From the NCBI GenBank assembly GCA_016196625.1, contig JACPXH010000004.1:1711-65710 (forward strand): a stretch of 64,000 nt of DNA, written 5' to 3'. This document shows, in pieces, positions 15,780 to 51,946 of this stretch. Source of the DNA: Candidatus Parcubacteria bacterium. GTDB taxonomy: Bacteria; Patescibacteriota; Minisyncoccia; JACPXH01. Positions within the stretch are counted from its first letter, which is position 1; each line of letters begins with the position of its first letter. Under the pieces are notes generated by a model that searched no databases, was not told the DNA's origin, and saw only the letters and a program-made list of their open reading frames with translations. A program made the position numbers and the translations under genes.

Positions 15780-16714
15780 AGTTTAATCCGCACTGAACTT
15801 TTGTTCAACAGTTATCAACATTGACAGACAAGTGACCGGCCATACAAACTGAAATTAAGGCAGCTCCGCAAGGGGAGGACAGGCCCCCAATCCTGTCAGG
15901 GATGCCCGTCGGATACCCATTCTGATGGGTCCACTCGTAACCCCCTTGCCGGCCGCTGGTATCCAGCGGTCGAACACACTCTTGAGGAGCCTCCTCCCGT
16001 TCCTTGCCGCCCTCTCAACCAGATGCGTCCGCACATCTCCGCACTGGTGAGAGCCGCAGGCGCGCACGGGCAGCGTTCCCGCATCTCGCAGCGCCATCCG
16101 AGCGCAGGCACCGGATGGTCAGGCAGCGGGTGCACGCAACGCTGGAAGGCACTCCTCTGGTTGCCTTACCCCCGCCGGGCTTCGCCATCAGCGCGAAGCC
16201 CAAATTCTTTTTGATTCTAGAAGTAACTATCGTGTTGTTTTCATAGAACGAGTGCGCCCGAGCGGCGTCCGAGGCCGAGCGGGCATGGTGCCCGCCTAAG
16301 TTTTGTGAAGCAAAATTTAGGCGGGCGAGCGAGGCCGAGAAGCAGCGAAAATCCTCGCTGGGGATTTTCGCGTAGCGAGGGCGCACTCGTTCGATGATCT
16401 AGTACACGCGCTTGACATCACTTGAGAGTGGCGTAAGAATCAAATCGGCAAGGCGCCCTCCACCTCTCCTCGGAGAGTAACGGCGGCAGGCAGCAGCCGC
16501 AAAGCTGCCGAAGGTGTCGGCCTAGCCCAATACAGCAACCGTCGTCTGCCGCTAGCATCCAGCGGTTGAGCACCCCATAAGAGGAGGCTCCTCCTGTCCC
16601 TCTGTCTTATTTTACGAGGAAGGCGCCTCCGACCCATGGCCTTGCCGCTGGGCACCACGTCGCTGTGGTGCCCAAACCTTCTTTGAAAACCTGAATGCGA
16701 GGAGGTGATGACAA
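15780..16714 (+). ncRNA. Long ORF-free, hairpin-dense non-coding region upstream of the reverse transcriptase (candidate retron-like ncRNA region)
   Basis: About 930 bp with no credible ORF in a gene-dense genome. Two copies of a paired-hairpin module: CCGCTGG-tat-CCAGCGG plus GAGGAG-c-CTCCTC at 15947-16000, and CCGCTAG-cat-CCAGCGG plus GAGGAG-g-CTCCTC at 16541-16593. Additional hairpins include GGCACCAC-gtcgct-GTGGTGCC at 16648-16669. A second conserved motif ggcagcGGgtGCaCGCAAcGCTGgaagg recurs at 16105 and 16480. Confidence 0.35.
16240..16395. mobile_element. MITE-like palindromic element, copy 1 (shorter variant), inserted in the RT upstream region
   Basis: Terminal inverted repeats gaacgagtgcgccc (16246-16259) and gggcgcactcgttc (16379-16392). 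Core shared with copies at 28.3, 37.0 and 51.8 kb: gagcggc..ccgaggccgagcggg..gcgagcgaggccga..agcagcgaaaatcctcgctggggattttcgcgtagcgag. Confidence 0.6.
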
Positions 16715-17734
16715 GTGCAGCAGGCAAAACTCTCTCTCCCGCCGATGCCCGCTCCGTGGCCGGATGATTTCCGAACAGCGCTCGGCCTCGACGAAGCGGC
16801 ACTTGCCGACGCATGGTTGCACCGCGCCGACTACCAACCGCACCGCGTGCCCAAACGCAAGCCGCGCCGGATTGGACCGAAGCGCCAACCGAAGGCAATC
16901 AAGAAGAAGCGCCGGCCCATTGACGAACCGCACCCCGCGCTCCGGGTCGTTCAAGAGGCAATCCGGAAAAAACTTCTCAAACGGATTCCACTCTCATCTG
17001 CCGCACACGGCTTCCGGAAGGGACGGTCGGCAACAACCGCGCTCATCCCCCATCGGAAGTCCGCCGCGTTCTTCACGGTAGATTTCCGAAACGCCTTCCA
17101 CAAGGTAACGACGGCGATGCTCGCGGATGCGTTGCGCGAGTGCGCACCGATCATCAAACCGGATTGGGTCCCGCCGCTTGTCGCGTTCACCACCCACCGC
17201 GGCCGGCTGCCGCAGGGCGCGCCAACGTCGAATGGTCTGTTCAACATCGCCTGCCGCGGGCTCGACGCAAACCTTGCCGCCTTCGCGCAGACGAGAGGAT
17301 TCGCGTACACGCGCTACGCAGACGCGGTCATCATATCGGCAAAGGTGCCGCTGCCAACTTCGCTTCAGCGCGAGATCGAAGCGAAGATCCGAACGCACGG
17401 ATTCCCCCTTGCCGCGGAGAAAACCGGCTACACCGAACCGCGCTACGCGCATCCCGTCATTATGGGGATTGCGGTGGTTGCAGGACGGCTCCGCGTTCCG
17501 AGGCGCCAGCTTGACCGCGCCCGCGCGTTCCTGCACCGAGCTCGATACGATCCGGCGATCCCGATGAAGGTTGTGGAGGGCGTACTCGGCAATGTCCGCG
17601 GTCTCCTCGGCGGACTGCCCCAGCGACTCCTCAAACCCTACCGCGAACTCCTTACGAGCAGAAACCTGTGGGTACACCCGCGCCGGAGACGACTCGCACC
17701 TCCGTTGACTCCTTCAACTTCTTCACCACCGTAA
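16715..17734 (+). CDS. Retron-type reverse transcriptase, stand-alone, with non-canonical YADA active-site motif
   Basis: GTG start with GAGGAGGTGA RBS 7 nt upstream. Motif 1: IKKKRRPIDEPHPALRVVQEAI. Motif 2: HGFRKGRS. Motif 3: FFTVDFRNAF. Motif 4: LPQGAPTSNGLFNIA (Ec86 has LPQGAPSSPKLANL). Motif 5: YTRYADAVIISA (Ec86 has YTRYADDLTLSA). Motif 6: AEKTGY. 339 aa, retron size, no maturase or endonuclease domains. Confidence 0.8.
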   Translation: MQQAKLSLPPMPAPWPDDFRTALGLDEAALADAWLHRADYQPHRVPKRKPRRIGPKRQPKAIKKKRRPIDEPHPALRVVQEAIRKKLLKRIPLSSAAHGFRKGRSATTALIPHRKSAAFFTVDFRNAFHKVTTAMLADALRECAPIIKPDWVPPLVAFTTHRGRLPQGAPTSNGLFNIACRGLDANLAAFAQTRGFAYTRYADAVIISAKVPLPTSLQREIEAKIRTHGFPLAAEKTGYTEPRYAHPVIMGIAVVAGRLRVPRRQLDRARAFLHRARYDPAIPMKVVEGVLGNVRGLLGGLPQRLLKPYRELLTSRNLWVHPRRRRLAPPLTPSTSSPP

Positions 17735-17738
17735 AGCG

Positions 17739-17785
17739 CCCGATCCTCGCGATCGGGCGCTCTGTCTTTTTGCGGGGTCAGCGGC
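17739..17785 (+). terminator. Rho-independent terminator of the RT gene
   Basis: Perfect 11-bp stem AGCGCCCGATC-ctcg-GATCGGGCGCT followed by ctgtctttttgc. Confidence 0.65.
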
Positions 17786-17873
17786 AGTGTAGCGTGCACC
17801 CAACGAACTCAACATCTTTAAGCGATCGCTATAGAATGTTTTATTTGTTTTTCGACCTCGCCCCAACAACACT

Positions 17874-19241: not shown

Positions 19242-19362
19242 AACAATGCCTACTATTATTCAATACACTTCCGACGGCGTCAATATTCCCTCATCGGGCG
19301 CAACATGAAGACTCTCCTCGTAAAGACAACCGCCGCGCACCATCGGGTGCGCGGCGGGAACC

Positions 19363-19644
19363 TCAGCGAGAAGAACTCGCTTCGACCATGGCCGCGATAT
19401 CTCTCGGCAGTTCGTCGAGCCTGACCGAAACATCAAACTCCATCCCTTCCCTGGTGAGTAAAGCCGCGGTGCCAAGTTTCACGGCCTGGCCGCCCACTTC
19501 AAGGCAGCGACACGTGACGGGAATTTCTAGCGTTGCCTCACGACCCCCTTCCTCGGCCCACTTAAGCTTCGCGGTTATATCTGACAAAAGAACATGACCG
19601 TGTTTGCCCATCACCCGAATGACGACGTTGCTCGGCTTCTCCAT
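19363..19644 (-). CDS. Small hypothetical protein
   Basis: 93-aa ORF in a tight gene context between the sugar transferase and nth. No recognisable motif. Confidence 0.3.
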   Translation of the reverse strand: MEKPSNVVIRVMGKHGHVLLSDITAKLKWAEEGGREATLEIPVTCRCLEVGGQAVKLGTAALLTREGMEFDVSVRLDELPRDIAAMVEASSSR

Positions 19645-19658
19645 CCTTCACCCTCCCT

Positions 19659-20348: not shown

Positions 20349-20531
20349 GGGACAGTGAATGTATGCCGTAGTCGGCGGCGCTGGCCCTGAAGCGACATCC
20401 ACAGCCGAGCAGCACGGTCCGAACATTCGACTCGCCAAGTGTTCGGTGCTCGGCGAGGACAGAGTGAGCGAGTCGCTGGACGAACGAACGCTCGCTGAAC
20501 GGGCCAGCGCCGCCGGCGTTACGAAAGCACG

Positions 20532-24088: not shown

Positions 24089-24328
24089 GATTTCGCCATT
24101 ATAGCCGACTGCGCGTGTTCGGGCAAATGGAATGCTTGACCCCGTACCACAACGCGCCGCAGATGCTTACTCTTAACTCGCCGTTCAACCAGTTATGGAC
24201 GCACCGCCCCGGGAATTTCGCTCCGTCGTTGTGGTACACGGGGTTGACGTAACCCACTATGATTGCTACGGTCCGTAACGCGCATACCGCTCTTTTCATC
24301 ATCAAACCCGCAGACGGAGGGAGATACC

Positions 24329-27038: not shown

Positions 27039-28249
27039 GGTCTAGAAGCTGCCGCTGGTTTTCGGTACGGCACGAACAGCATGAGCCCGGCCGCGGCGGC
27101 AGAAGTTGCCGCGCCGTAGGCAAATGGTGCGGCAGGCCCGAAACGATCCCACAGGAATCCGGCGATGAGACTTGCGGGCAGCAACGCCAAGCCCACGCAC
27201 GCCGCAAACAGACCGAACGCCGCCCCCCGATTTTCTTCACTTACCACATCCGCAACGAACGCCCGCTGCGTGCCTTCGGCGATGGCCGCGTAAAAACCAT
27301 AACAGGCGAATAGCGGCCAGATGAGCGCGGGCGACGAAACCACGGCAAATCCAAGATAGACCAAACTGAAGATGACAAATCCGGCCGCGAGCAGCCGCCG
27401 CCGGCCAAAACGATCGGACGCGATGCCAGCCGGCACCGCCAAACTCGCGTAGACCACATTGAAGAGCACGTAGGCGAGCGGGACAGCGTACGCCGGCACG
27501 CCCGCATCCCGGGCGCGCAAAAGCAAAAACGCATCGGATGAGTTGCCAATTGCGAATAGGGTGGCCGCGATGAGAAACATGGTGAAGCGCGGCGTGAATA
27601 TCTTCCGAGACCGTAAGCCACCTAGCTGCCGCCGAAGGTCAGGAGCGATCGGAGACGGCGCGCCCCGCACTTCCCGAACAAACACCATCAGGTTGAGGAC
27701 CGCAACAGCGCTCGCGACGAACGAAAGCAAGAATACGTTTCGAAACCCAAACAGGGGCAGGAGCGCTGCGGCCAAGAGCGGTCCTACGACCGCGCCAATG
27801 GTATCCATGGTCCGGTGGAAACCAAACGAGCGGCCGTAGTTCGCCGTAGCCGTAGAAGACGCAATCAGGGCGTCGCGCGGCGCGGTCCGGACTCCTTTGC
27901 CGAGGCGATCGGTAAACCGGACTGCGAGCACGTGCCCGGGGAGCGTTGCAAAGGCCAAGAGGGGTTTAACCACCGCCGAGAGAGAATAACCGAGGACCGT
28001 AAGCCCCTTGCGGTTCTTGAACTTATCCGAAAGCCAGCCCGCGGGAATTTTTGCCAGACTCGCCGTTGCTTCTGCCACCCCCTCAATGAGCCCTACGGTT
28101 TTGAAACTGGCGTTGAGTACCGTCGTCAAAAAGAGAGGGATGAGCGGGAATATCATCTCGCTCGAGGCGTCGTTCAAAAGCGAGGTCAACCCGAGAAAAA
28201 ACACGTTGCGGGGAACGCCGAGCACATTTTTTGTCTCTGTTGGTTTCAT
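27035..28249 (-). CDS. MFS transporter
   Basis: 404 aa with 12 predicted TM helices and a GxLxDRxGRR-like loop (SDRFGRRRLL). Confidence 0.7.
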   Translation of the reverse strand: MKPTETKNVLGVPRNVFFLGLTSLLNDASSEMIFPLIPLFLTTVLNASFKTVGLIEGVAEATASLAKIPAGWLSDKFKNRKGLTVLGYSLSAVVKPLLAFATLPGHVLAVRFTDRLGKGVRTAPRDALIASSTATANYGRSFGFHRTMDTIGAVVGPLLAAALLPLFGFRNVFLLSFVASAVAVLNLMVFVREVRGAPSPIAPDLRRQLGGLRSRKIFTPRFTMFLIAATLFAIGNSSDAFLLLRARDAGVPAYAVPLAYVLFNVVYASLAVPAGIASDRFGRRRLLAAGFVIFSLVYLGFAVVSSPALIWPLFACYGFYAAIAEGTQRAFVADVVSEENRGAAFGLFAACVGLALLPASLIAGFLWDRFGPAAPFAYGAATSAAAAGLMLFVPYRKPAAASRP

Positions 28250-28267
28250 ATTTATATTTGTAAGCTT

Positions 28268-28473
28268 TTCGGGCGTTGTTTACATCAAGCGGGGTAGGCT
28301 CGAGCGGCTTCTGAGGCCGAGCGGGCAGGGTGCCCCGAGCCTGTCGAGGGGCGAGCGAGGCCGAGGAGCAGCGAAAATCCTCGCTGGGGATTTTCGCGTA
28401 GCGAGAGCCTATCCTGCTTGATGTCAAAGCGTACCATGTCTGTTTTTGTAAACAACGTTGGGATTTCTTACAT
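28268..28473. mobile_element. MITE-like palindromic element, copy 2 (full-length)
   Basis: Outer inverted repeats gggcgttgtttaca / tgtaaacaacgttggg. Inner inverted repeats acatcaagcggggtaggctc / gagcctatcctgcttgatgt. Conserved core with the cgaaaatcc-tcgctgg-ggattttcg hairpin. Confidence 0.65.
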
Positions 28474-28605
28474 TATATTCTACCAATTTTCATGGTTTGA
28501 CCGAGTGGACAAAACAAACTTGACATATCAATACTATGTGTTGTATATTAAAAGCCACACATAAACCCTTGCTGAAAAGACTAAAAAGAGCTTTAATACT
28601 GCTTT

Positions 28606-29268
28606 ATGGCCCATCTGCAGTCTCTGATAACAATGTGGCGAAAATTTGAGAAGCCTCGGGTCAACGTGAGGCTGATTTTGGCTCTGTGGAGCGCAACATT
28701 TGCCCTCATGCTCATCATCTTCTTGGGGTTTACAAGCCTCATGAAGCTCCCCGGTTCATCCGCGGGCGCATCTGACGAGCCGACACTCATTGCGCGTGCG
28801 CCTTCAAACGGCTTGGGGGTCAGTCCAAGCTCAGCGATCGTTGCCGGGACCGGCACCATCAAAATCGGAAAAATTGCGCTGGAAGCGCCGATTGTTTTTT
28901 CGCTCTCCGCTGATCTCAAAGACCTCGCGCGCGACCTGACCCAAGGAGTCGTCCATTACCCGGGTTCAGCCATGCCGGGTGGGGTGGGCAACGTCTTTAT
29001 CGCCGGACACAGCTCCGGACAAGTCTGGGATCCCAATCCCTACAAACGCGTCTTCGCAAAGTTGGGGCAGTTGAAGCGCGGAGACAACATCGTGATCGTC
29101 TCGACCGGCACGACGTATACGTACCGGGTGCGCTCGGTCATGGTGCTCCGACCCGATGAAATCCGCATCTTCCAACCGTCTACTTCGCCCATGCTCACGC
29201 TTTCGACCTGCTGGCCCATTGGTTCAGCCACGAACCGGTTCGTGGTGGAGGCGGATTTGGTTTCGTAA
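28606..29268 (+). CDS. Sortase (class E-like transpeptidase)
   Basis: N-terminal TM. Catalytic His region VFIAGHSSG. TLSTCWP active-site Cys motif. Conserved Arg near the C-terminus. Confidence 0.75.
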   Translation: MAHLQSLITMWRKFEKPRVNVRLILALWSATFALMLIIFLGFTSLMKLPGSSAGASDEPTLIARAPSNGLGVSPSSAIVAGTGTIKIGKIALEAPIVFSLSADLKDLARDLTQGVVHYPGSAMPGGVGNVFIAGHSSGQVWDPNPYKRVFAKLGQLKRGDNIVIVSTGTTYTYRVRSVMVLRPDEIRIFQPSTSPMLTLSTCWPIGSATNRFVVEADLVS

Positions 29269-29443
29269 TTCCATGTTCGGTCCCGCGTTTGTCCTGAGCT
29301 TGTCGAAGGACGCGGGGTCGCGATGGGTTTAGGAAACCCTTGTTCTCTCACAACAGAACGAACCACAAACAGGAGGGAGACATGGCCGATATGTGGGCGG
29401 TGTGCCCAGAGCTCGCCGTCGAACTCTGGAAACTCGAAGTTGA

Positions 29444-30580
29444 GTGGTGGTTCCAGGAACGCGAGGAGGCTTTGTTCGGCCTTCTCAAAAAAAATGGGGA
29501 TGGCAGAAACCCCAGAGGGAGGGACAAGCGATGTGTAAGATTCTGGACGAAGGCGAGTGGTTGTGGCTCAAGTGGGGGATGGGATTCGCCATCCTCGTCA
29601 CCGTACTCTTCACCGCAGTTGCCTGGCTCTTACTTTCGTTGGGCACGCTCATGAGCGCCTCTGGCGCCGAGGCGCGCGAGGAGCGCTCGGTGCCGTACGA
29701 CCGAAGCAAGATCGTTTCGAGCTCAATGCTCTTTGAGCCCGAAAAGTCCGTCATCGGGTGGAGTATCCTAGAGATCACCTTTATCGAATCCGGCAAGGCC
29801 GCGGCCACGCCTGAGCAGTGGGCCGAGGATCTTCGCAAGGCCGGCCGGATCGCCCAAGCGCAGTGGCGGGAGGCCCGAGCATATCTGGCCACCCTAAAGT
29901 GGGAGAAATACACCGCCAAAGAGTGGTACCGGATGTGTCGCGTCCTGCGACCGGTCGAAACGCTCCAACCGGGGAAACTTGACTGCGAAGGGTACGAGCG
30001 CGCCGCGGAGTCTGGCGCATGGGGACTGCATGATCCCAAGACCGGGGAACTCGTTGTGGATGGGAGCTCCGGCAATGTCGTGGTGAGAAAACTGACCACC
30101 GCGACAACCGTTGTTTCGCCGCCACCAGCCGCTGCAGCGCCCGCTAAGTTCTACGTGATCTGGGTGCTGCGCGATCCGAGGGATCGGTTACTGCGGCCCC
30201 ACCAAGAGAGCGCAAGCGTTGATGAGCGCCGCGCCCGAGAGCTCCTTGCCGACGCACAAAGCGGTGTGCAGCGCGTCAAGTTAGCAACGGGCGCATTCAT
30301 ACTCACCCTCTACGACCAGGCGTCCCCCAACCCGATGGGTCGCGGCTACAACTGCAACCTCGGATTTCAACAGGGCAAACCCTACGAGGTTGCAGTGAGG
30401 GAGGGATATGGCCTTGTCAGTCTCCCTCTCATCCAAAACCGGCAAGCTCGGTGCATCCGGGTCCAGATGATGCCCGAGTTGCGCCGGACCCTGTCGCTGA
30501 AAAATCCAGGTTCCGGTACGCTCGATTTCGTACCTTCCCAGACCACTGAAGCCACAAATCTGTGGTTCATGGTCTGGTGA
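29444..30580 (+). CDS. Hypothetical membrane-anchored protein between the sortase and its putative substrate
   Basis: 378-aa ORF with TM WLWLKWGMGFAILVTVLFTAVAWLLLSLG. True start probably internal near 29530. No recognisable domain. Confidence 0.4.
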   Translation: MVVPGTRGGFVRPSQKKWGWQKPQREGQAMCKILDEGEWLWLKWGMGFAILVTVLFTAVAWLLLSLGTLMSASGAEAREERSVPYDRSKIVSSSMLFEPEKSVIGWSILEITFIESGKAAATPEQWAEDLRKAGRIAQAQWREARAYLATLKWEKYTAKEWYRMCRVLRPVETLQPGKLDCEGYERAAESGAWGLHDPKTGELVVDGSSGNVVVRKLTTATTVVSPPPAAAAPAKFYVIWVLRDPRDRLLRPHQESASVDERRARELLADAQSGVQRVKLATGAFILTLYDQASPNPMGRGYNCNLGFQQGKPYEVAVREGYGLVSLPLIQNRQARCIRVQMMPELRRTLSLKNPGSGTLDFVPSQTTEATNLWFMVW

Positions 30581-30645
30581 TCTCTCGGGAGAGGCGCGCC
30601 TCTCCCCTCACCCCTGCTCACAAAATCTTGTGATCAGAGGCGAGC

Positions 30646-33600
30646 ATGATTCATAACAACCATAATTTTTTGATTGGACTTAATAAATCCCGCGCCTTCC
30701 TGCGGGGTATTAGGCCCCGCAGGAAGGATTTAGGTAACGCCAATTCATCCCCGCAACAAGCTGCGGGGTATTCTGGTAAGGTGCGGGATAAAAAGCCGCG
30801 GAAACTCGGGCGCTGTTTTGCTGCCCTTGTTGTTTTGGCGCTGGCGCTCGCAATCGTGGCCCCCTCGCTTGAAATTTCCTTGCATTGGCCAACCGTCCGT
30901 GCAGACAGCGCCGGCAACGATCCCGGCGGCCCGGGCGGCGACAACGGTGCTCCCGGCGGCGACAACGACCCACAACAATCAACGCCGCCGATCGTGCGCA
31001 GCTGGACCATGGATCAGTTTGTGCGCAACGTCTCGCAGGGCGGGGGGTTTGCCCAATCAATCACGGCCAACTCGGGCGACACGCTTCAATTCCGGTTTGT
31101 AGTCACTGCGGCTGGCAATGCCCCAATCACCGGCATTACCTTTCGGCTGAACCTACCCAACCAGCTCCAACGCCTGGCCGGCACCGCGTTCCTCGAAGGC
31201 CCCGGCGGCCGCACCCAGATTGACCACCTCATTTCGGTCATCACCAACGCCACGGTGCGGCCGGGTGAGACGTACGTTTTGGAACTCAGCGCCGCAGTGC
31301 CGCCGGCGAGTACCTTCTCTGCAGGTACCACGAGCATGATCAGCTCGCCCACCATGGAAGCCCCGGGTATGGTCAATCTCGCCGCCGCAATCTCCATTGC
31401 CGTGATGCTCCCGGCTCCGCCTCCGCCCCCTCCGCCTCCACCGCCGCAGCCAGTGGGTGTGCCGGCGTTAAACATCCTGGCACAGGTCAAAAATATCTCG
31501 CGCGCAGAAAGCACCTTGCGCGATCGGACCGGTGCCTCGCCGGGCGAGTCAATCACCTTTTCGATGCGAATTGATTCGGTGGGCACAGCTCCGGCGCGCA
31601 ATGTGCTCGCGCGAGATTTCCTGCCGGCTGGTTTTACGTTTGAAGCGGGCAGCACCAGGATTGATTTCAATTTTGCCGCCGGGGACCCCACCTCCGGGTT
31701 TTTCTCCCTGGGGGATCTCGCGCCGGGCCAGTCAAGAACGCTTCACTTTACCGCCCGCGTGGCGACCGGCTTTTTCGCCGCCGGCACAAACGCCGTAACG
31801 AACGTCGCGGTCGTGCAGGCTGACAGTGTGAGTCAAAGACAAGCGACTGCGTTCGTTGACGTAACAGTGGCCAGCCCGCCGCCGCCACCGACGGGCACAC
31901 CCGCACTCGCCATCTCCAAGCTCGGCCGCAACTTGAGCCGAGGTGAAGCCACGCTCCAAAGGACCGTCAACGCCGCTCCCGGCGAAGATGTCCTATGGTC
32001 AATCAGGGTTGATTCGATCGGGTCGGCCGCTGCCCGAAACGTAATCGTGCGCGATTCCCTGCCGTGGCAAGCCTCGTATCGAACCGGTTCAAGCCGGCTC
32101 GAGAGTAACGCGGTGGCCGACGGCATTGTGAATGGCGGCATCAACATCGGCGATCTTGCGCCGGGCCAAAACCGCATCGTTGCCTTCCAGACCACTGTCG
32201 GAGGCAGCAATCTGTTCGTACCCGGAATCAACACCCTGACCAACTTTGCGTTCGCGCGCGCCGACGGCCTGCCGAATGAAACTCAAGACAGCGCCCAGCT
32301 TGCGGTCACCGTCCCGGCCGCGGCACCGCCGCCGCCCGCCGGAGGACAACCATCGCTCGCACTTACGAAATCCACCCGCAACTTGAGCCGGAACGAAGTA
32401 GGCTTGGTTAGAGTTACAAACGCCTCGCCCTTGGAAACCGTAGAGTTCTCCGTGCGCGTAAGCTCCACCGGTACGGCTCCGGCCCAGAACATATCGGTAC
32501 AGGATTTCCTCCCCGGCGGGCTCACCTTAATTTCGGGTTCAGTGCGGTTGGACGGCAACGCGCAGCCTGATGCCATCGCCACCGGCATCGCCGTGGGGAC
32601 CATGCCGTCCGGCACAAGCCGCACGCTGACCTTCCAGGCGAATGTGCGCGACGCCAGCTTCTTTGCCGCAGGCGTAACCACACTCACCAACTTCGCCACC
32701 GCGAACGCAAGTTCAGCCTCAAGCCAATCCGACACGGCGAACGTGCTCGTTACGGTGAATCCGGCACCGGTCCCCAGCCCCAACCTATCCGTCTTCAAAA
32801 CCGTCCGCAACGTAACGCGCAACGAGATAAGTTTCGTTAAATCAACCGGTGCCGACCCCGCCCAAGAACTTGAATTCTCAATCCGCATAGACTCCACCGG
32901 CACCACTTCGGCCCAGAACGTAACCGTCTCCGACTTCCTTGATCGGATGACGTATGTCGCGGGCACGACCCGGCTCGACAACGCCACGACCACCGACGGC
33001 ATTGCCTCGGGCGGGCTTGCGATCGGGCCGATCCCCAACGGCACGAGTCGCACGGTAATGTTCCGGGCGCAGATCCGGGACGCCAGCCAGTTTGCCGCGG
33101 GCACCTCAGTACTCACCAACACCGCTACTGCCTCGGCCACCAACGTGCCCATCCGACAAGACACGGCCACAATCATTGTTACGGTCGGCGGCATTCCGCC
33201 GGGCGGCACGCCCAACCTCAACATCTTCAAGCAAATCCGGAACGCCACGCGCGGCGAATCGTTCGCCAAATCAACGAGTGCCGATCCCGGACAAGAACTT
33301 GAATTTTCGGTCCGCATTGACTCAAACGGCACGGCCCCGACCCAGAACGTCCGCGTTGCCGACGCGCTACCCGGCCGACTCACCTACCTGTCAGGCACGA
33401 CCCGAATCGACGGCGCGGCGGCTGCCGATGGCATTGCCTCGGGCGGACTCACCCTCGGCACCGTCCCCTCGAGCACCACTCGAACGGTTACCTACCGAGT
33501 TCGAATCGCTGACCGCAGCCAATTTTCAGTTGGGCAGACCGTGCTCAACAACTTTGCCACGGCTTCAGCCGACAACACCTTCTCCCGCCAAGATACTTCC

Positions 33601-34536: not shown

Positions 34537-34553
34537 CCCGCCGCGGCGGGTTC

Positions 34554-34594
34554 ATAGAAACAGGCAGCGCCCTTTAGGGCGCTGCCTGTTTCTA
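34554..34594. terminator. Bidirectional terminator hairpin
   Basis: Perfect roughly 18-bp stem tagaaacaggcagcgccc-ttta-gggcgctgcctgtttcta between convergent genes. Preceded by the palindrome cccgccgcggcggg. Confidence 0.6.
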
Positions 34595-34617
34595 TGCCGA
34601 CGCTACACCCCGGGGCT

Positions 34618-34923
34618 TCAAAGTCCTTGCAGTTCGCTCAACACTTTACTCGCATCCGCATCCAAGTCAGAGAGCACCGTCGCGTTCAGATCCGCTTCGA
34701 TAGCCGAAATCTCATCCGAGCCAGACTGCTGCTCGAATGCCGTAACGCGGCTGTCTGACTCTAGCTGCGGCGCCGGCCGGGTAACAACCGATCCGCGGTA
34801 GTCAAGGTTGTCGCCCAGTTCCGCATACGAGGCCAGCGCGTAAGCGAGAATCACCGCGAACACTCCGACTAAAATCGCAAAGATAGCGGGATGATCCAGT
34901 TTGCGTTGGGTACTTTTGACCAT
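34618..34923 (-). CDS. Small membrane protein, unknown function
   Basis: 101 aa with one TM helix (AIFAILVGVFAVILAYALA). Confidence 0.35.
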   Translation of the reverse strand: MVKSTQRKLDHPAIFAILVGVFAVILAYALASYAELGDNLDYRGSVVTRPAPQLESDSRVTAFEQQSGSDEISAIEADLNATVLSDLDADASKVLSELQGL

Positions 34924-34927
34924 AGGC

Positions 34928-35425
34928 CTACCGCACGGCCTTCAAGGCCGTGATGATTTGCTTCAAGATGGTGTGCAGCTCCACGAGCGCTTTCTTCACG
35001 TTTTTGGTGGCGGCGTTCGCCTCTTGGGCGATTTGGCGGGGCTTGTCGCCTGTGCCGAGGGCTTCGTACTTTGCGCTCGCCTCTTTCACGGCGGCAATGG
35101 CTGCGTCGCGCTTGGCTTTGGCTTCGCTGACCAGGGGCTCAAGCGCCGCTACGTCTTTACCGGCCGCCCGGAGTTTTGCCAGACGACTTTCCACCCGTTC
35201 AATCATCCGCCGGAGCCGCTCAATGGCGGCTTGCTCCCGCCGGATCATGCGCCGTCCGTGCGCCTTGGCTCGTTCTATTTTTTCTGCGCGCTGAACCCGG
35301 AGATTGCCTTCCATCGTCCGGCCGCGACCCACCGCTTCACTTTGTGCTCCAACGACAAACGGCGCCACCGCGACAAACGCGGCGGTGAGCGCGGCTATTT
35401 TGAACAATGAGAATCGGCTCGTCAC
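34928..35425 (-). CDS. Secreted coiled-coil protein, unknown function
   Basis: Signal peptide MTSRFSLFKIAALTAAFVAVAPFVVGAQS, then an Ala/Arg/Lys/Glu-rich helical sequence. Confidence 0.4.
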   Translation of the reverse strand: MTSRFSLFKIAALTAAFVAVAPFVVGAQSEAVGRGRTMEGNLRVQRAEKIERAKAHGRRMIRREQAAIERLRRMIERVESRLAKLRAAGKDVAALEPLVSEAKAKRDAAIAAVKEASAKYEALGTGDKPRQIAQEANAATKNVKKALVELHTILKQIITALKAVR

Positions 35426-35497
35426 GGAAGTTATCTCGTCCTTTCAACAATCATACCATAAGAAATGAACCTGGTGTGGATAATGTTATGAGTTGCC

Positions 35498-35986
35498 TTA
35501 TGTCTTTGGGGATGTACGAATTCGTCTCTGCCAAAGCAAAACGTATACCAAGGCGAGCAGCGTATAGTTGACGCCGATGAACACCGGATGGTTCCAGTTG
35601 ACCACGGAAATTGAGGCGTCCGAGACCGGGAATAGAAATGTCGTCGCCGTAAAAGGCGGCACATTCGCATGGCTGAACACGTCAATGAGAATATGGAGAC
35701 CCCAGCCCGAAAACGGCACGAGCATATCCGGGCGCATCAGCCAGACGACGGCAGCCATAACCGCAAAGACGAGAACGCTGTGGGCAGTTAAGTCCAGCGC
35801 CACGAGGAAGGGCGGAATCGTATCCAGCGCCGGCAGGCCTTGACCCTTGAGTAGAGGCCAGGGGTTAAGCAAGAGTGCGGCGAGAATGGGCAAATCTGGA
35901 ACTACGCCGCAGACGACGGCAACCCAGCGCTTCGGATTTTTCCGGTAGAGCGCGCCTGTCCAAAGCGCATGCCCAAAAGTGTCCAT
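35498..35986 (-). CDS. Membrane-bound metal-dependent hydrolase-like (DUF457/YdjM-like)
   Basis: MDTFGHALWTG N-terminus and HILIDVFSH motif. 4 TM segments. Confidence 0.45.
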   Translation of the reverse strand: MDTFGHALWTGALYRKNPKRWVAVVCGVVPDLPILAALLLNPWPLLKGQGLPALDTIPPFLVALDLTAHSVLVFAVMAAVVWLMRPDMLVPFSGWGLHILIDVFSHANVPPFTATTFLFPVSDASISVVNWNHPVFIGVNYTLLALVYVLLWQRRIRTSPKT

Positions 35987-36106
35987 GATGTTGGGTAAAC
36001 CCCGTTAGAACGGGCGCTTCGCGATCGGCTGATGAAAGCATTATACTCCTATCTCTACCGCTGACAGAGTCGGTGACGTTCTAACGGGGTAAAGACCGCT
36101 GCGCCG

Positions 36107-36886
36107 TTAGCGAGACGCAACGCGAGCGAAAACTCCAAAATGGTCCGAGTAACCGGTGGAAAGCCGAGTGGCCGAAATGACGCACAGCGAGGGAGAGACA
36201 AAAACATAGTCCAGCCGGCGTTTAGCCGCCACAGATCCGGCCGGCCAGGTTGCGTGCTCGAGAAAATTTGCCGCGGTGATTTCCGGAGATGTGGTGAGCC
36301 CTGCGGTCGCAATCCGGAGCGCCTCATCGTCGTAACGCCCAGAGTTAAAATCTCCGGCCATGACGAGCGGCGGGTCAAAGTCTTCGAGCGCCCGGCGGAG
36401 CTTTCGGGCCTCAAGGCAACGGAGTGCTTCGTGATACGGATCAAAGTGCGTTGAGACCACCAACCCGACCCCGGCAATCTCGGCCGCGACAAACCCTCGA
36501 TTTGCGGAATATAAAAATGCCGACCACCCCCACCGGATGAGTTCCAACCCATGAAACTGTCCCGAGAGTACGCGCCGAAACGGCAAGCGACTTAAGATAG
36601 CGTTATTGTGGGGCAAGAACATGCGGGCAGAAACCGCGAGGTGGGGATAACCAATTCTTTTCTGAATGATGCGGACAATATCAGGCCAAAAAAACGCAGC
36701 CGCGTTGGTCTCTTGGAGACAGATGATGTCAGGCGACGGAGCAAGCTTTAACAGAAAATCACCAAGGCGCTCGGCGTTCTCGCGCATGGTTTGACGCCGT
36801 GCTCCCAACGCCCAATTGGCTTCGGCCGTTCCCTTGACCGGACCCTGGCCATGCCTAAGATTTAACGTGAACACGGAAAACTGCAT
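36107..36886 (-). CDS. Endonuclease/exonuclease/phosphatase (EEP) family protein
   Basis: FTLNLRHG and DIICLQE N-terminal EEP motifs. C-terminal SDHFGV. Confidence 0.65.
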   Translation of the reverse strand: MQFSVFTLNLRHGQGPVKGTAEANWALGARRQTMRENAERLGDFLLKLAPSPDIICLQETNAAAFFWPDIVRIIQKRIGYPHLAVSARMFLPHNNAILSRLPFRRVLSGQFHGLELIRWGWSAFLYSANRGFVAAEIAGVGLVVSTHFDPYHEALRCLEARKLRRALEDFDPPLVMAGDFNSGRYDDEALRIATAGLTTSPEITAANFLEHATWPAGSVAAKRRLDYVFVSPSLCVISATRLSTGYSDHFGVFARVASR

Positions 36887-36959
36887 GATCTTTTTGCCTC
36901 ATCCGCCGCGCCACCTTTGGACTCACTCCACCATTCTAATAGATATTAGATGTAAGATT

Positions 36960-37167
36960 TTCGAGCGTTGTTTATATCAAGCGGGGTGGGCTCGAGCGGC
37001 TTTTGAGGCCAAGCGGGCAGGGTGCCCCGAGCCTGTCGAGGGGCGAGCGAGGCCGAAGCGCTAGCGAAAATCCTCGCTGGGGATTTTCGCGTAGCGAAAG
37101 CCTGCTCCGCTTGATATCAAATCGTGTCATGTCTATTTTCTGTAAACAACGCTGGGATTTCTTACAT
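36960..37167. mobile_element. MITE-like palindromic element, copy 3 (full-length)
   Basis: About 85% identical to copy 2 across roughly 200 bp, including outer and inner inverted repeats and the core hairpin. Confidence 0.65.
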
Positions 37168-37190
37168 ATTAGAATGTGAACCGTTCTTGA

Positions 37191-46248: not shown

Positions 46249-46412
46249 TACTCCGGCATCCGTAATAAACCAACGGCCTTCTTGAGCTCTTTTGCTTGCT
46301 ACTCGATCCTTTCTACCATTCCCCCTGTTCAACCCGGCGTATGTAAAGGTGGCCAAGAACAGACGCACAGCGTAACAGCACTCACCCGAATATTCAACTT
46401 CGCCGGCGACGA

Positions 46413-47258: not shown

Positions 47259-47392
47259 GGTGCTCGGGTTAAAACTGCTGCTGTAGGCAGCGGTCGTGGC
47301 GCGTTGCGAATTCGTGACGCGCGATGCGGTTTGTGATAATGTAAAGTACGCTTGACATACTGATCTCTAATTTCTATACTGTAACATATCAG

Positions 47393-47677
47393 GTGTATGC
47401 TATGAAAGAATTCATTGAGAATCAAGTTTACGAATTGCGAATAAAGTCCGGCATTACGCAGGAAGCGTTGGCGGGGGCAGTTGGCGTCACTCGCCAAACC
47501 ATTATTGCAATTGAAAAAGGAAATTATACACCTTCGGTAATTTTAGCTTTGAAAATTGCCAAATTTTTTTCCGCTAAAGGCGGATCCGCCTCCAGCGGAA
47601 AGAAATCCATCTCCGTAGAAGAAATTTTCTCTATCAAGTATGACCCCTCGATAAAAACTCGGGGTCATGGTGATTAA
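47393..47677 (+). CDS. XRE-family (Cro/C1-type HTH) transcriptional regulator
   Basis: [43 protein letters not shown]. Low-GC region. Confidence 0.7.
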
Positions 47678-47686
47678 GATCGAACC

Positions 47687-48052
47687 ATGAAAAATAATCT
47701 CATTCAGGAAATCGCTATTTCCCTCGTTCTTATTATTTTGCTCGTGTTGTTTTTAAATCCATTCGGCTTTTGGATGCCGACTACGCTCTTAATGATGATG
47801 GTGCTTGGTCTGGTCGTTGTATTCGTCGTGTTCGCGAGTTTTGTCTGGAAAGAAAACACCAGAGATGAACGGGAAAGTCTTCATAAAATGATGGCGGGTC
47901 GAATTGCCTTTCTTGCCGGCACGGCTCTATTGGTAATCGGCATCATCGTCCAAAGCTTCAAACATGAACTTGATTACTGGCTCGTATTTACTCTTGGTAC
48001 CATGATTCTGGCAAAAATTATCGGGCTTACATATGGTCGAATTAAATATTAA
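47687..48052 (+). CDS. Small membrane protein partnered with the XRE regulator
   Basis: 121 aa, three hydrophobic helices, low GC. Confidence 0.45.
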   Translation: MKNNLIQEIAISLVLIILLVLFLNPFGFWMPTTLLMMMVLGLVVVFVVFASFVWKENTRDERESLHKMMAGRIAFLAGTALLVIGIIVQSFKHELDYWLVFTLGTMILAKIIGLTYGRIKY

Positions 48053-48089
48053 CGCACAAGGGTTCAAAACCATAACAATCAATAAATAT

Positions 48090-48812
48090 ATGACAAACAA
48101 TAACTCACAACCCATTCGACAAGCTCAGAGTGAAAAAAGTTTTGCGATGCCTCTCGTTATCGCAATAATTGCTCTTGTGGTGGTGATTGTGGGAGTCGGC
48201 TATTACGCTACTCGGAAACAACCGCAAACAGCGCAATCGCCAGCGAGTGAAAAGACGTTAGAGGACGGCACCGTAGTGAAAGCTGATGGCACCATGATCA
48301 AACCTGACGGGACGATGGTAAAACCGGACGGCACAATGATTAAGCCAGATGGAACTATGGTTAAACCAGATGGAACGATGGAAAAGAAAGAGGGAGAGAC
48401 CATGGTGAAAAAAGAAGGTGGAGCGATGATGGCAAAGTACACGGGAACAGTTCTGGCCGGCGAGTCTGCACCTCTTCTTGATTTTACGAAAGCAGATTAT
48501 GACACGGCCGTGAAATCGGACGCGTTAGTTGTCCTTTACTTCTATGCCAACTGGTGCCCGATCTGCAAGGCAGAATTTCCAGTAATGCAGAGGGTATTTA
48601 ATGAACTCTCGACGAATAAAGTAATCGGCTTTCGAGTGAATTACAATGACGACCAAACAGACAATGACGAACAGAACCTGGCCAAACAATTCGGGGTTGC
48701 ATACCAGCACACAAAAGTGTTCGTCAAAAACGGCCAAAGAATTCTCAAGTCGCCTGAAGGTTGGGACGAAACGCGCTACGACACGGAGATTAACAAGGCC
48801 TTAACTCAATAA
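48090..48812 (+). CDS. Membrane-anchored thioredoxin-fold protein with tandem heptapeptide repeats
   Basis: TM helix MPLVIAIIALVVVIVGVGYYA. Five to six KPDGTM(I/V) repeats encoded by a 21-bp tandem DNA repeat (48285-48400). Thioredoxin motif LYFYANWCPICKAEFP. Confidence 0.6.
   Translation: MTNNNSQPIRQAQSEKSFAMPLVIAIIALVVVIVGVGYYATRKQPQTAQSPASEKTLEDGTVVKADGTMIKPDGTMVKPDGTMIKPDGTMVKPDGTMEKKEGETMVKKEGGAMMAKYTGTVLAGESAPLLDFTKADYDTAVKSDALVVLYFYANWCPICKAEFPVMQRVFNELSTNKVIGFRVNYNDDQTDNDEQNLAKQFGVAYQHTKVFVKNGQRILKSPEGWDETRYDTEINKALTQ
48285..48400 (+). repeat. 21-bp in-frame tandem repeat (about 5.5 copies)
   Basis: gatggcaccatgatcaaacct / gacgggacgatggtaaaaccg / gacggcacaatgattaagcca / gatggaactatggttaaacca / gatggaacgatggaaaag. 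Confidence 0.7.
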
Positions 48813-48815
48813 TAT

Positions 48816-49547
48816 ATGACAGAAAGTCTTCTTATCGGGGCATTTTTAGGGGGACTCGTTTCTTTCCTTGCTCCCTGTGTGCTCCCAATAATTCCCGGCT
48901 TTCTTGCCTACCTTGCGGGATCAAGCACTGCAGAAACGGATTCCACAAGCTCACCGCAGGCGGGTCCAAAGCGCAAAGAAATATTTATTAACAGTGTTTT
49001 CTTTGTGCTTGGCTTTGGAGTCGTCTTTGCACTTCTCGGAGTGTTATTGAATACACTCCTTGAAGGAATTGCATATGATGTACAAACCTGGCTCTCGCGT
49101 ATTGGCGGAGTAATGATCATCTTTTTCGGCCTCTACCTAGTAGGACTTATCAGGATTCCTTTTTTAGAGAAGGAATATAAATTTGGAGTGAAGACAAAGT
49201 TCAAATCCCGCTATGCCACATCCTTCCTCTTTGGTTTAGCATTTGCCGCCGGCTGGACACCATGTGTCGGCCCGGCATTAGGGGTTATTCTTGGTCTCGC
49301 GACAACACAACCGGGGTCAGCATTTATTCTCCTCCTAACCTATGCACTAGGACTGGGTATTCCGTTTCTTATCGTTGGCGCTTTTACCGGCCAAGCTGCA
49401 GAGTTTATCAATCGCCATGCGGTGGGGCTCAAATATCTCAACATTGTTTTTGGAGTCATTCTTCTCGCTCTCGGTGTTCTTATTTTCACCCAAAAACTTT
49501 CTCTCATTGCCAACTTCAGTCTTCTCAATAAGATATTGCTCAAATAA
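48816..49547 (+). CDS. ccdA: Cytochrome c biogenesis/thiol-disulfide transporter CcdA/DsbD-like membrane protein
   Basis: Two conserved Cys in TM helices (LAPCVLP, GWTPCVGP). 6 TM helices. Confidence 0.7.
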   Translation: MTESLLIGAFLGGLVSFLAPCVLPIIPGFLAYLAGSSTAETDSTSSPQAGPKRKEIFINSVFFVLGFGVVFALLGVLLNTLLEGIAYDVQTWLSRIGGVMIIFFGLYLVGLIRIPFLEKEYKFGVKTKFKSRYATSFLFGLAFAAGWTPCVGPALGVILGLATTQPGSAFILLLTYALGLGIPFLIVGAFTGQAAEFINRHAVGLKYLNIVFGVILLALGVLIFTQKLSLIANFSLLNKILLK

Positions 49548-50714
49548 ATGAGCGCTTTAAAACCATACACCCTTATTGCGGTTGTTGTCCTTCTCGCTGG
49601 GACGATCTACTTCATTAACTCAAACAGTGTGAGAAAAGGTGGGTCAAGCGAACCGGTTTCAGTTATGCCACGATCCTCCTCTGGATCCAACGAAGTAAAA
49701 AAAGATACAATGCCCAGTAAATATCTTTCTGCGGAAGCAAAATCAAAACGCTATGAACTGGCCAAGGAAGTTACCACCCCCGATGGTTTTATAAATACGG
49801 ACGGGAGGCCCATAACGATCAGTGGCCTTATTGGCAAGAAGATTATTCTGGTTGATTTTTGGACATACAGTTGTATCAACTGTCAGCGTACCACCCCGTA
49901 TCTAAACGCATGGTACGAAAAATACAAGGACAAGGGCTTTGTTATTATTGGGGTGCATACGCCGGAATTTGAATTTGAAAAAGACTACAATAACGTAAAG
50001 GCGGCCGTGGAAAAATTTGGTATTAAATTCCCCATCGTGCTTGATAACGATTACTCAACGTGGACTGCGTACAAGAATCAATATTGGCCAAGGAAATACC
50101 TAATTGATATTGACGGCTACATCGTCTATGACCACATCGGCGAGGGTGGATATGAAGAAACGGAACAAAAAATTCAAGAAGTGCTGGGTGAACGGATGGC
50201 CGTCCTCGGCGAAAATGGGACTATTGATCAGTCAGTAACAAAAGAGATACCCGTTCCGGGCGGGTCCAGGAGTCCCGAAACGTACTTTGGTGCCAGCCGC
50301 AATCAACTCTTGGGGAACGGAACACCAGGTGTTGCCGGAGATCAAAAAAATCTCACCATCCCTGCCAAACTTAATCTTAATGCCCTGTATCTTTCTGGGG
50401 ATTGGGATATTACAAATGAATTTGCCCAAAATACCTCGCCCGAAACTCGCATCATATACAAATACAGCGCGAAGGATGTTTTCTTTGTTTCCCAATCAAA
50501 TACGGAGACAGTCATCGAAGTTCTGCGCGATGGAAAACCTCTTGGAGCAGAAGCGGGAGCGGATGCTATAAAAACTTCTGATGGAAAAACGGTTGTGAAA
50601 ATAAAAGAAGCGCGCCTCTACAAAATTATTCAAGACAATCAATCAGAAGTCCACACCCTCGAATTCAGAATTCCAAAATCGGGACTCAAAGCGTTTACCT
50701 TTACTTTTGGTTAG
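49548..50714 (+). CDS. Membrane-anchored thiol-disulfide oxidoreductase (TlpA/ResA-like redoxin) with C-terminal extension
   Basis: Redoxin motif LVDFWTYSCINCQRTTPYLNAWYEKYKDKGFVIIGVHTPEF (CxxC). N-terminal TM. Roughly 170-aa C-terminal domain of unknown function. Confidence 0.65.
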   Translation: MSALKPYTLIAVVVLLAGTIYFINSNSVRKGGSSEPVSVMPRSSSGSNEVKKDTMPSKYLSAEAKSKRYELAKEVTTPDGFINTDGRPITISGLIGKKIILVDFWTYSCINCQRTTPYLNAWYEKYKDKGFVIIGVHTPEFEFEKDYNNVKAAVEKFGIKFPIVLDNDYSTWTAYKNQYWPRKYLIDIDGYIVYDHIGEGGYEETEQKIQEVLGERMAVLGENGTIDQSVTKEIPVPGGSRSPETYFGASRNQLLGNGTPGVAGDQKNLTIPAKLNLNALYLSGDWDITNEFAQNTSPETRIIYKYSAKDVFFVSQSNTETVIEVLRDGKPLGAEAGADAIKTSDGKTVVKIKEARLYKIIQDNQSEVHTLEFRIPKSGLKAFTFTFG

Positions 50715-50932
50715 CTTTAAACCGCTGCCACTTCCAAGAACTTCAAGCGAGGACGCAGCTGGAAGGGCTTCGGCCGTGAACTCAGGACCCAACTGCTCAG
50801 CCGAACGGAGGGTGTATAGAGGCCAGCCCTGCCGCCGGACTCGTGAGCGGAATCATAATCAATGGGCGGCACACAGTGCCGCCCATTGATTCGTCGGTCA
50901 ATCCGCCAGCTGGCGGACGGAAAATCTAATTG

Positions 50933-51006
50933 TGGAGCGGGTGAGCGGAATCGAACCGCCGTTCCTAGCTTGGGAAGCTAGCGTACTACCACTGTACTAC
51001 ACCCGC
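50933..51006 (-). tRNA. tRNA-Gly (anticodon CCC) with encoded CCA
   Basis: Minus-strand cloverleaf: GCGGGTG acceptor, anticodon loop TTCCCAA, T-arm GGCGGTTCGATTCCGCT, CCA. Confidence 0.85.
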
Positions 51007-51138
51007 GGCACCCGCTCACATTGTCTAAAGCGTACACGGTTGCGTCAACCCCGCTAGAAAACAATGTCTTGTTTTGCGAAAATAGAAGGGCCTCTCTTAC
51101 AGACGAACGGACAGAAAAAGATGCAACGAACGAGTTTT

Positions 51139-51576
51139 CTAACGGGGCGGGCGCACGCCGAAAAAATAATCCCACCATGAGAGCGCGTTTGCCATGAACC
51201 CGGATGACGACGGGGGGCTTGGCGGCGCCGGGAGAGACTCGTTAGTCTGTGGCCGAGCCTGCTCTACAACCCCCGCGCCCGGCACGAGCACGACCACCCT
51301 CTCCCCTTCCCGGCGGAGGTTGAGCCTAACTTTTGCTTCGCGCTCAAGTGTGTCGGGGTTCTTGAGGGCGGCCAAGAGCGTACGCAACGCCTCGCGATTC
51401 GCTTCAAGCTCGGCTCGATCAAAGCGAACCTCTTGGGCGTGCCGCTCCACCACATAGCTACGTCTGAACTCCCGCCAGACCGCAACCCCCAAGGCCGAGC
51501 CGATCGCCACGCACACCACCACCAGCCACCAAACCTTGGTGGCGACGGGACGCTTTACTTGTCCATCTCCTACCAT
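51139..51576 (-). CDS. Septum formation initiator (FtsB/DivIC-like)
   Basis: N-terminal TM VWWLVVVCVAIGSALGVAV, then coiled coil (RAELEANREALRTLLAAL) and REGERVV. Confidence 0.5.
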   Translation of the reverse strand: MVGDGQVKRPVATKVWWLVVVCVAIGSALGVAVWREFRRSYVVERHAQEVRFDRAELEANREALRTLLAALKNPDTLEREAKVRLNLRREGERVVVLVPGAGVVEQARPQTNESLPAPPSPPSSSGFMANALSWWDYFFGVRPPR

Positions 51577-51751
51577 GAAAGTATAATCAAGTTCATGCGC
51601 GTACGGAAAAGAAAAACGGTTCGGATCCTGTGGGCGGTTATCGTGGTGATCACGTCGCTATCCATGATCATCTATTTGCTCTTGCCGATTTTCAGCGGCT
51701 TTTAGTTTTAGGTTGAGGTTTAGATTGAGGCACTAACGCGTAAGCAGTACC

Positions 51752-51946
51752 ATGGTTGTTTACGCCAAACACCGAGCAAACGAACTCTTGAGCGGCGTCT
51801 GAGGGCGAGCGGCCATGGTGTCCGCCAGCTGGCGGACGAGCGAGCCCGAAGAGCAGCGAAAATCATCGCTGGGGATTTTCGCGTAGCGAGAGAGCTCGTC
51901 TGTTCGGTGAGTCGACCACCTTCTGTTGTAAACGTGAACAACGCTC
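51752..51946. mobile_element. MITE-like palindromic element, copy 4 (variant carrying the 16-bp palindrome)
   Basis: Outer arms ggttgtttacg / gttgtaaacgtgaacaacgct. Core gagcggc..gagcgg..gcagcgaaaatcatcgctggggattttcgcgtagcgag. The central segment is replaced by tccgccagctggcgga. Confidence 0.55.

Follow-up and report, generated by a model that had tools for sequence, protein, structure and literature searches.

We describe a family of short palindromic repeats in a stretch of 64,000 nucleotides from a Candidatus Parcubacteria bacterium (assembly GCA_016196625.1, contig JACPXH010000004.1, positions 1,711 to 65,710 of the forward strand), hereafter the window, to which coordinates refer unless another locus is named. 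We consider it likely that the copies represent a transposable element of the miniature inverted-repeat type (MITE), of about 215 bp, from the Candidate Phyla Radiation (CPR), which is moved in trans by a staggered-cut transposase and carries a module that is selected as a folded single strand, probably RNA. What was observed comprises the repeats themselves, their terminal inverted repeats and target-site duplications, sites polymorphic for the insertion, covarying pairs, and conservation that differs from one part of the element to another; from these we infer both the type of transposase and RNA as the selected form. An initial annotation of the window had reported four copies and read them either as a non-autonomous element with current or recent activity or as a repeated regulatory or small-RNA module. 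The ends, the duplications, the unrelated contexts and the polymorphism bear out the first of these readings, while the covariation and the conservation of the core lend partial support to the second.

Copies and Boundaries of the Element

The four annotated copies (c1 to c4) are all present, all on the + strand and all intergenic. Patterns of 35 nt from the 3' part and 31 nt from the 5' part of the core each matched four times in the window at no more than two mismatches, where shuffled sequences give an expectation of 0.00. The sites had been located correctly, but the full-length copies had been started too far inward, their true ends lying about 9 nt further out. The core hairpin that had been described is real, with 10-nt arms that are 100% complementary, and so are both of the nested inverted repeats.

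The best-preserved arrangement can be followed in c2, a full-length element of 214 bp (28259-28472, +; covariance-model score 165.7 bits). It begins with a left terminal repeat (28259-28284; TGTAAG...CGTTGTTTACA), continues with the 5' strand of a closing stem, P1 (28284-28301), the core (28302-28404) and the 3' strand of P1 (28405-28422), and finishes with a right arm (28423-28472) that ends in CTTACA. Within the core, on the + strand, lie a variable hairpin with an internal tandem G·A, P4 (GCCCCGAGCCTGTCGAGGGGC; 28332-28352), and a near-invariant hairpin, P5 (GCGAAAATCC-TCGCTG-GGGATTTTCGC, then GTAGCGAG; 28371-28397). The second full-length element, c3 (36951-37166, +; 216 bp, 149 bits), is 91% identical to c2. 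An older copy, c4 (51739-51958, +), has degenerate ends (CGTAAG...CTTGCA), and c1 (approximately 16222-16406, +; core 16260-16378, P1 16246-16259 and 16379-16392) is immobilized, its left arm being degenerate and its right arm truncated, and is not flanked by a duplication. Comparison of related loci with the window added a fifth, divergent member, v5 (approximately 5490-5745, −), which lies between an rfbB-like gene and a nucleotidyl-transferase gene, co-oriented with both; tandem G·A steps are frequent in its long stem, and the canonical P5 is missing.

No further canonical copies were detected in the window by the covariance model or by nhmmer. Clusters of the motif GAGCG[AG] occur across the whole window only at c1, c2, c4 and v5; c3 falls one short of the cluster threshold because one of its motifs is mutated. 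The elements, 214–220 bp long, do not appear to encode a protein, as all six reading frames are broken or unconserved between copies, and the concatenated six-frame translations of c2, searched against a protein database for copies miscalled as genes, gave no scoring match. The peptide RYAKIPSEDFR..., which the initial annotation had seen repeated across pseudo-open reading frames, does recur in three copies but is broken by a stop codon in c3.

By exact-pattern scans of genome and metagenome collections, using a 19- to 24-mer inside P5, we collected eight further distinct copies (L001–L008) from other CPR/Patescibacteria assemblies. The assemblies that hold them are labeled Candidatus Saccharibacteria, plus one Portnoybacteria, and the source contig itself is labeled Candidatus Parcubacteria. 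The gene neighborhoods of these copies are unrelated, and the element occurs in either orientation with respect to adjacent genes. A similarity confined to the four window sites and due to segmental duplication of flanking genes, the outcome that would have contradicted the initial annotation, is therefore not what we found, since the flanks of the copies are unrelated and copies exist in other assemblies. In L003 and L008 the element stands immediately upstream of an rseP-like gene, antisense to it, and is the sole similarity detectable by blastn between these 8-kb loci; this shared site represents either an old insertion under selection or the repeated targeting of the same site.

Target-Site Duplications and Insertion Polymorphism

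The terminal inverted repeats of c2 and c3 are imperfect, about 26 bp long, with TGTAAG...CTTACA ends and a common box, CGTTGTTTACA, so that the inverted ends read TGTAAG...CGTTGTTTACA and TGTAAACAACG...CTTACA. Versions of them are recognizable in L001 and in L003–L005. The inspection of target sites that the initial annotation had suggested was informative, as both full-length copies are flanked by perfect 7-bp direct repeats of AT-rich target DNA. At c2 the duplication is TTATATT (28252-28258 and 28473-28479), its left copy being 2 nt from the start codon of an MFS gene (28247-28249), and at c3 it is TATTAGA (36944-36950 and 37167-37173). The joint chance of finding both perfect 7-bp duplications at fixed boundaries is about 5e-9. 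In older copies the duplications are decayed or absent. For example, that of c4 reads ACTAACG on one side and ATCAACG on the other (matching at 5/7 positions), and its right copy (51959-51965) includes the stop codon of lepA (51960-51962, read as the reverse complement), from which it follows that c4 was inserted at the extreme 3' end of lepA.

Related loci without the element were found for two of the copies. In L027 the lepA stop is directly followed by a convergent small membrane open reading frame (ORF), and c4 is absent, and in L025 the element is absent next to a reverse transcriptase (RT) whose protein sequence is identical to that encoded beside c1. Short-read contigs of the source strain break inside c2, as would be expected of a dispersed repeat.

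The membrane ORF (MRVRKRKTVRILWAVIVVITSLSMIIYLLLPIFSGF) is itself conserved. In the window it lies at approximately 51597-51707 (+), convergent with lepA, and is missing from the list of ORFs of at least 80 amino acids; its stop overlaps the lepA stop in L027. The MFS gene adjoining c2 is missing in the relative L024. Further, c2 and c3 form direct repeats around an 8.5-kb block (28259-37166) that encodes a sortase, an unknown 378-amino acid protein and a 1296-amino acid surface protein with DUF11 repeats. Composite transposition of this block can be excluded, because c2 and c3 each have their own duplication.

A Conserved Fold in the Core

The core module is about 140 nt long and Y-shaped on the + strand, with a fold that is common to the 12 copies compared. 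It is closed by P1 (14–20 bp), the sequence of which is particular to each copy, and inward of P1 come a tandem G·A step and two G-C pairs (5'-GAGC / 5'-GCGA), leading to a compact three-way junction with linkers of 1, 1, and 3 nt, the nucleotides of which hardly vary between copies. Arm A consists, in order, of P2 (5 bp), a bulge, a G·A/A·G step, P3 (GGCC/GGCC), a second G·A/A·G step, GC, a conserved 9-nt/2-nt internal loop (GGGCAUGGU opposite GA) and P4. Arm B is the near-invariant P5 hairpin of 10–11 bp (GCGAAAAUCC-UCGCUG-GGGAUUUUCGC).

P4 is hypervariable, being completely different between copies and ranging from about 15 to about 114 nt. The short versions are hairpins of about 15–21 nt, often closed by a GNA or GAA triloop or containing an extra CGAG/CGAG tandem G·A. 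The long version is a branched module of 114 nt that is common to L001, L007/L024 and v5, at 85–89% identity and with compensatory changes.

RNAalifold, applied to ten copies, returned 44 pairs, 18 of which carry compensatory changes. In a covariance-model alignment of the 12 copies 95.4% of cells pair and both sides have changed in 21/44 pairs, figures that come from an alignment itself fitted to the covariance model. None of 500 shuffles reached these measures, and partners slid by 1–3 columns pair at only 29–44%. Independent support for the fold is given by individual replacements: P3 of L006 is AAUUGC/GCAAUU in place of GGCC/GGCC, P4 of c4 has a U-A pair where other copies have C-G, and the long P4 modules exchange GGGCGUUGC/GCAACGCCC for GGGCGGCGC/GCGCCGCCC and CGGUC/GACCG for CGGCC/GGCCG.

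Two additional pairings were considered and rejected. Pairing of the P5 loop (CUCGCU) with the 3' AGCGAG as a pseudoknot was judged sterically implausible, as it would leave just 2 nt to bridge a helix of 10 bp, and it finds no support in the c4 variant. An alternative hairpin, GGGCA-UGG-UGCCC, is broken in c4, where it is P4 that shows compensation. In v5 the P5-loop-type strand and the 3' AGCGAG strand form a simple hairpin, and the two strands may be alternative pairings.

The fold prefers one strand. The + strand core folds better by 6–15 kcal/mol in 12/12 copies, and the covariance model scores the + strand at 133–166 bits in the ten standard copies and at 89 and 115 bits in the two long-form copies, vs. 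no more than 22 bits for the − strand. This preference follows mainly from the conserved 2x2 interruptions, all of which are 5'-GA/5'-GA and hence stable as sheared G·A, whereas the opposite strand reads C·U. Counts of G·U vs. A·C, used as a further test of strand, gave a weak signal (18 vs. 11 and 13 vs. 8). As far as sequences can tell, it is the folded + strand that is selected, and this is compatible with either RNA or DNA.

Differential Conservation and the c1 Locus

Mean pairwise identity among the 12 copies is 0.62–0.63 in the outer terminal arms, 0.67–0.73 in the P1 strands and 0.85–0.86 in the core outside the ascertained 19-mer, compared with a baseline of 0.55 for random window sequence. 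Because all parts of one copy are equally old, the difference between core and arms cannot be neutral decay. Selection appears to be stronger on the core than on the terminal repeats, and copies with decayed repeats keep an intact core.

The c1 locus allows a direct comparison with a relative. Outside P4, which has been replaced wholesale, c1 and its ortholog in L024 are identical at 146/148 positions, whereas the genes of the syntenic region share 68–86% nucleotide identity and the non-coding flanks 61% (dinB leader), 73% (promoter region), 87% (unit B), and 91% (unit A). The excess is significant even against the best-conserved flank (binomial P ≤ 8e-5), and gene conversion from other copies would not account for it, since no other locus has the P1 sequence found in c1. 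On this comparison c1, an immobile copy, is under purifying selection.

The flanking units are structured in their own right. The intergenic region between dinB and the RT gene is 943 bp long (15772-16714) and contains two paralogous units, A and B, that flank c1 and carry direct repeats (15943-16004 and 16539-16601); each unit ends in a hairpin and then GCCCAAA..TTCTTTGA. The identity of unit A between the window and L024 exceeds that of the flanking genes. In the c1 ortholog of L007 (approximately 2680-2716) and L024 (within 9432-9688), the P5 loop contains a perfect palindrome of 35 nt (CCCCGTATACAACAACTAGTTGTTGTTGTACGGGG) between the two copies of a 4-bp duplication (CTCG), an arrangement that looks like a nested mini-insertion.

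Proposed Mechanism

We propose that a transposase supplied in trans would recognize the terminal inverted repeats of about 26 bp (TGTAAG ... CGTTGTTTACA) and cut AT-rich intergenic targets with a 7-bp stagger, which would leave the 7-bp duplications. The core would then act as a folded single strand, most probably as RNA produced by read-through from neighboring genes, and the folded module might affect local transcripts or bind a protein, as has been proposed for bcr1, ERIC, BOX and Correia elements.

Several observations weigh against this proposal. With regard to transposition, the window, about 200 kb of related loci and the plasmid, phage, and viral collections yielded no transposase whose terminal repeats match, the genome and metagenome collections being covered by one exact-pattern scan each; the search for such an autonomous partner, which the initial annotation had envisaged, used Pfam and NCBIfam on about 40 ORFs of the window and precomputed Pfam lists for L024, L027, and L031. 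Perfect target-site duplications are confined to two copies, relatives yielded no precise empty site whose flanks are near-identical, the c2 and c3 sites are rearranged in the relatives examined, and the element-less state of L025 looks like a deletion. With regard to the fold and its form, the invariance of P5 partly reflects how the copies were collected, as they were gathered by a P5 oligomer. P1 shows no strand bias (13 G·U vs. 8), and its covariation could be mimicked by hairpin-templated repair of a DNA palindrome. DNA energy parameters favor the + strand too, although less strongly, and the GNA triloops, the mini-hairpins of the GCGAAGC type and the tandem sheared G·A are features that stable single-stranded DNA typically has as well. 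Promoter and terminator searches, in or with the element, returned weak, non-conserved matches only, and the orientation relative to neighboring genes is mixed across loci. It is because no conserved promoter or terminator was found and because the orientation is mixed that we infer a role as RNA instead of asserting one.

Alternative Explanations

A tentative alternative, which we regard as possible but clearly less probable than the structured MITE, is that the Y-shaped core belongs to a previously undescribed, CPR-specific functional class, such as an RNA that binds protein or is catalytic, or a signal in folded single-stranded DNA, for which the MITE is a vehicle and which has been domesticated at some loci. 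Candidates for such domestication are c1, beside the retron-type RT, and, in L003 and L008, the copy that stands upstream of an rseP-like gene. If this were true, the active or binding site would consist of the tandem G·A platform together with the conserved internal loop of 9 nt.

It is rather doubtful that the repeats are a plain MITE whose core works only as double-stranded DNA, with the GAGCG(G/A) boxes, four on one strand and one inverted in the P5 loop, bound by the transposase or by a host architectural protein, and with the fold a by-product of palindrome symmetry and hairpin-templated repair. The hexamer AGCG(A/G)G does occur five times per element, its clusters in the window are unique to the elements, and the unbiased P1, the missing promoter and terminator signals and the mixed orientation would all be in keeping with a double-stranded site. 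However, the helix interruptions are consistently 5'-GA/5'-GA and not random mismatches, and P4 variants unrelated to one another, as well as P1 in v5, show them again; it is the + strand core that folds better in each of the 12 copies; the P3 replacement in L006 (AAUUGC/GCAAUU) would be intolerable for a fixed binding site; and immobile copies lose their terminal repeats yet keep the core.

Folded single-stranded DNA, as in the REP/BIME-RAYT system, the ends of IS200/IS605 elements or initiation signals, where an HUH enzyme or a primase reads hairpins on one strand, seems improbable to us. The motifs of the core (GCGAAGC, GC-GNA-GC mini-hairpins and tandem sheared G·A) are by established knowledge unusually stable in single-stranded DNA, the strand-specific fold persists under DNA energy parameters, and the orientation in the window is biased 4:1. 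However, HUH transposition does not make terminal inverted repeats with fixed 7-bp duplications, no RAYT, TnpA(Y1), Y1/HUH transposase domain or Rep gene was found in the window or the related loci, and orientation relative to genes is mixed when all loci are taken together.

The position of c1 raises the question of whether the element is tied to the retron-type RT (16715-17734), either as its template or non-coding RNA or as an RNA resembling a short interspersed nuclear element that the RT copies and inserts. We think this very unlikely. A c1-type element does stand upstream of a retron-type RT in the window, L024, L007, and L026, c1 is under purifying selection, and P1 followed by G-AGC bears a superficial likeness to the a1/a2 stem of retrons with its branching G. 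However, c1 is preceded by a terminator-like hairpin (16177-16213) and followed by a putative promoter of the RT unit (16411-16445; TTGACA-N16-TAAGAA), and a separate a1/a2-like pair (16457/16641) lies between c1 and the RT, nearer the latter. In L025 an identical RT protein is encoded without c1 and without unit A, other copies have no RT nearby, and close RT homologs were found in three assemblies only, whereas the multi-copy element is more widespread. The sharp terminal repeats and fixed-length duplications also suggest cut-and-paste of DNA. We therefore reject c1 as the non-coding RNA of the retron and treat its adjacency to the RT as an insertion that was later conserved.

Least credible of all is a set of paralogous host small-RNA genes spread by duplication, for although these would account for the strong covariation, the conserved unpaired nucleotides and the purifying selection at c1, they would not explain target-site duplications, unrelated flanks and mixed orientation, the lack of a promoter or terminator at a fixed position, orthologous sites without the element in relatives, or the presence of copies in genomes so divergent that their genes show no similarity in nucleotide sequence.

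Comparison With Known Repeats

The element is a new MITE family of CPR bacteria, and the kind of known repeat to which it is closest is the structured bacterial MITE. Our literature searches found no reports of MITEs in CPR bacteria. The whole window matched Rfam at the gathering threshold with tRNAs only, and in a permissive E-value mode over c1 and c2 the best scores were 11–16 bits, against cut-offs of 37–100. There was no plasmid or phage match by permissive blastn in distant mode, and four scans of viral contigs gave no true members, since matches to the internal-loop pattern lay within coding sequence and matched the model partially (no more than 17 bits), and matches to the terminal-repeat pattern, which is too short, were due to chance.

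The closest individual parallel comes from the Bacillus cereus group with bcr1, a dispersed, non-coding repeat of about 155 bp with short direct repeats and an unconserved distribution among strains, which is transcribed and in which compensatory changes preserve a branched fold at the RNA level (PMC3184786). The element described here is likewise small, dispersed, and non-coding, with short duplications and a compensated branched fold. However, the two share no sequence similarity, the duplications are of 5 bp in bcr1 and of 7 bp here, and the hosts are Firmicutes and CPR, respectively. The fold of bcr1 is a two-hairpin cruciform, whereas the present core is Y-shaped, contains tandem G·A motifs and has a P4 that can be swapped, and transcription, known for bcr1, is for the element a prediction.

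The ERIC/IRU repeats of enterobacteria, Correia (NEMIS) repeats of Neisseria, and BOX/RUP repeats of pneumococci are looser parallels. They too are intergenic imperfect palindromes of about 100–200 bp, and co-transcription lets them fold into long hairpins; terminal repeats and duplications are present in some, and BOX is modular, but they belong to other sequence families and other hosts. Correia and RUP elements make TA duplications. To our knowledge, none of the ERIC, Correia, BOX, or RUP repeats carries the three-way-junction core. REP/BIME sequences are also abundant extragenic palindromes, thought to be recognized as single-strand hairpins, but REPs are 20–40 nt long and lack terminal repeats and duplications, whereas the element is about 215 bp long, has both, and was found with no RAYT gene. 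Finally, the msr-msd RNA of retrons resembles it in being structured, having a long closing stem and standing upstream of a retron-type RT, but the element is dispersed in multiple copies with duplications, and between it and the RT lie a putative promoter and a further structured unit.

With respect to insertion sequence families, the termini contain GTAAG(C/A), and the boundaries that are perfect for both c2 and c3 give TGTAAG ends and a 7-bp duplication. The termini show the TGT...ACA signature of IS481, IS21, IS3, and Tn552 and the GTAA... signature of IS66, a likeness considered over the first 5–6 nt only, and no transposase gene was found with the element. Duplications are of 8 bp in IS66 (whose termini read GTAAGCG), 3–5 bp in IS3, and 5 bp in Tn7 and Mu. 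With its 7-bp duplication, the element is not assigned here to any of these families.

Other Structured Repeats and Features of the Window

Parts of the element resemble palindromes found elsewhere. Isolated palindromes at 50902-50919 and 63859-63874, one of them adjoining a tRNA gene, repeat the hairpin that forms P4 in c4 (GTCCGCCAGCTGGCGGAC). In unrelated metagenome contigs, a perfect hairpin, GGGGATTTTCGC-NNN-GCGAAAATCCCC, forms the center of other long AT-rich palindromes (L015 5002-5026 and 6151-6175; L016 5357-5381; a near-perfect version in L019), and its arms are the P5 arms of the element with their order swapped.

A second, unrelated structured repeat is present in two inverted 102-nt copies that are 87% identical and lie 16 kb apart (8105-8215, +, and 24135-24245, −). 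Its closing stem covaries (CCCCGUACUACAACG/CGUUGUAGUGCGGGG vs. CCCCGUGUACCACAACG/CGUUGUGGUACGGGG), one copy is upstream of a small DUF5654-type gene, and there is no Rfam match; it is a candidate cis-regulatory RNA. In addition, a block of low GC content (47687-50714; 0.446 vs. about 0.58 elsewhere), with + strand thioredoxin, DsbD, and redoxin genes in a − strand region, may have been horizontally acquired.

Implications for CPR Genomes

The genomes of CPR/Patescibacteria are small and poor in repeats, and five copies of the element in 64 kb point to ongoing or recent transposition. The element accounts for spurious ORF calls and for breaks in short-read assemblies at the sites of its copies. 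Its ends and duplication (TGTAAG...GTTGTTTACA, 7 bp) provide a sequence handle with which the CPR transposase can be sought, and the core of c1, which has changed less than the functional non-coding DNA that surrounds it, is a candidate for a structured RNA that was borne by a mobile element and adopted by its host.

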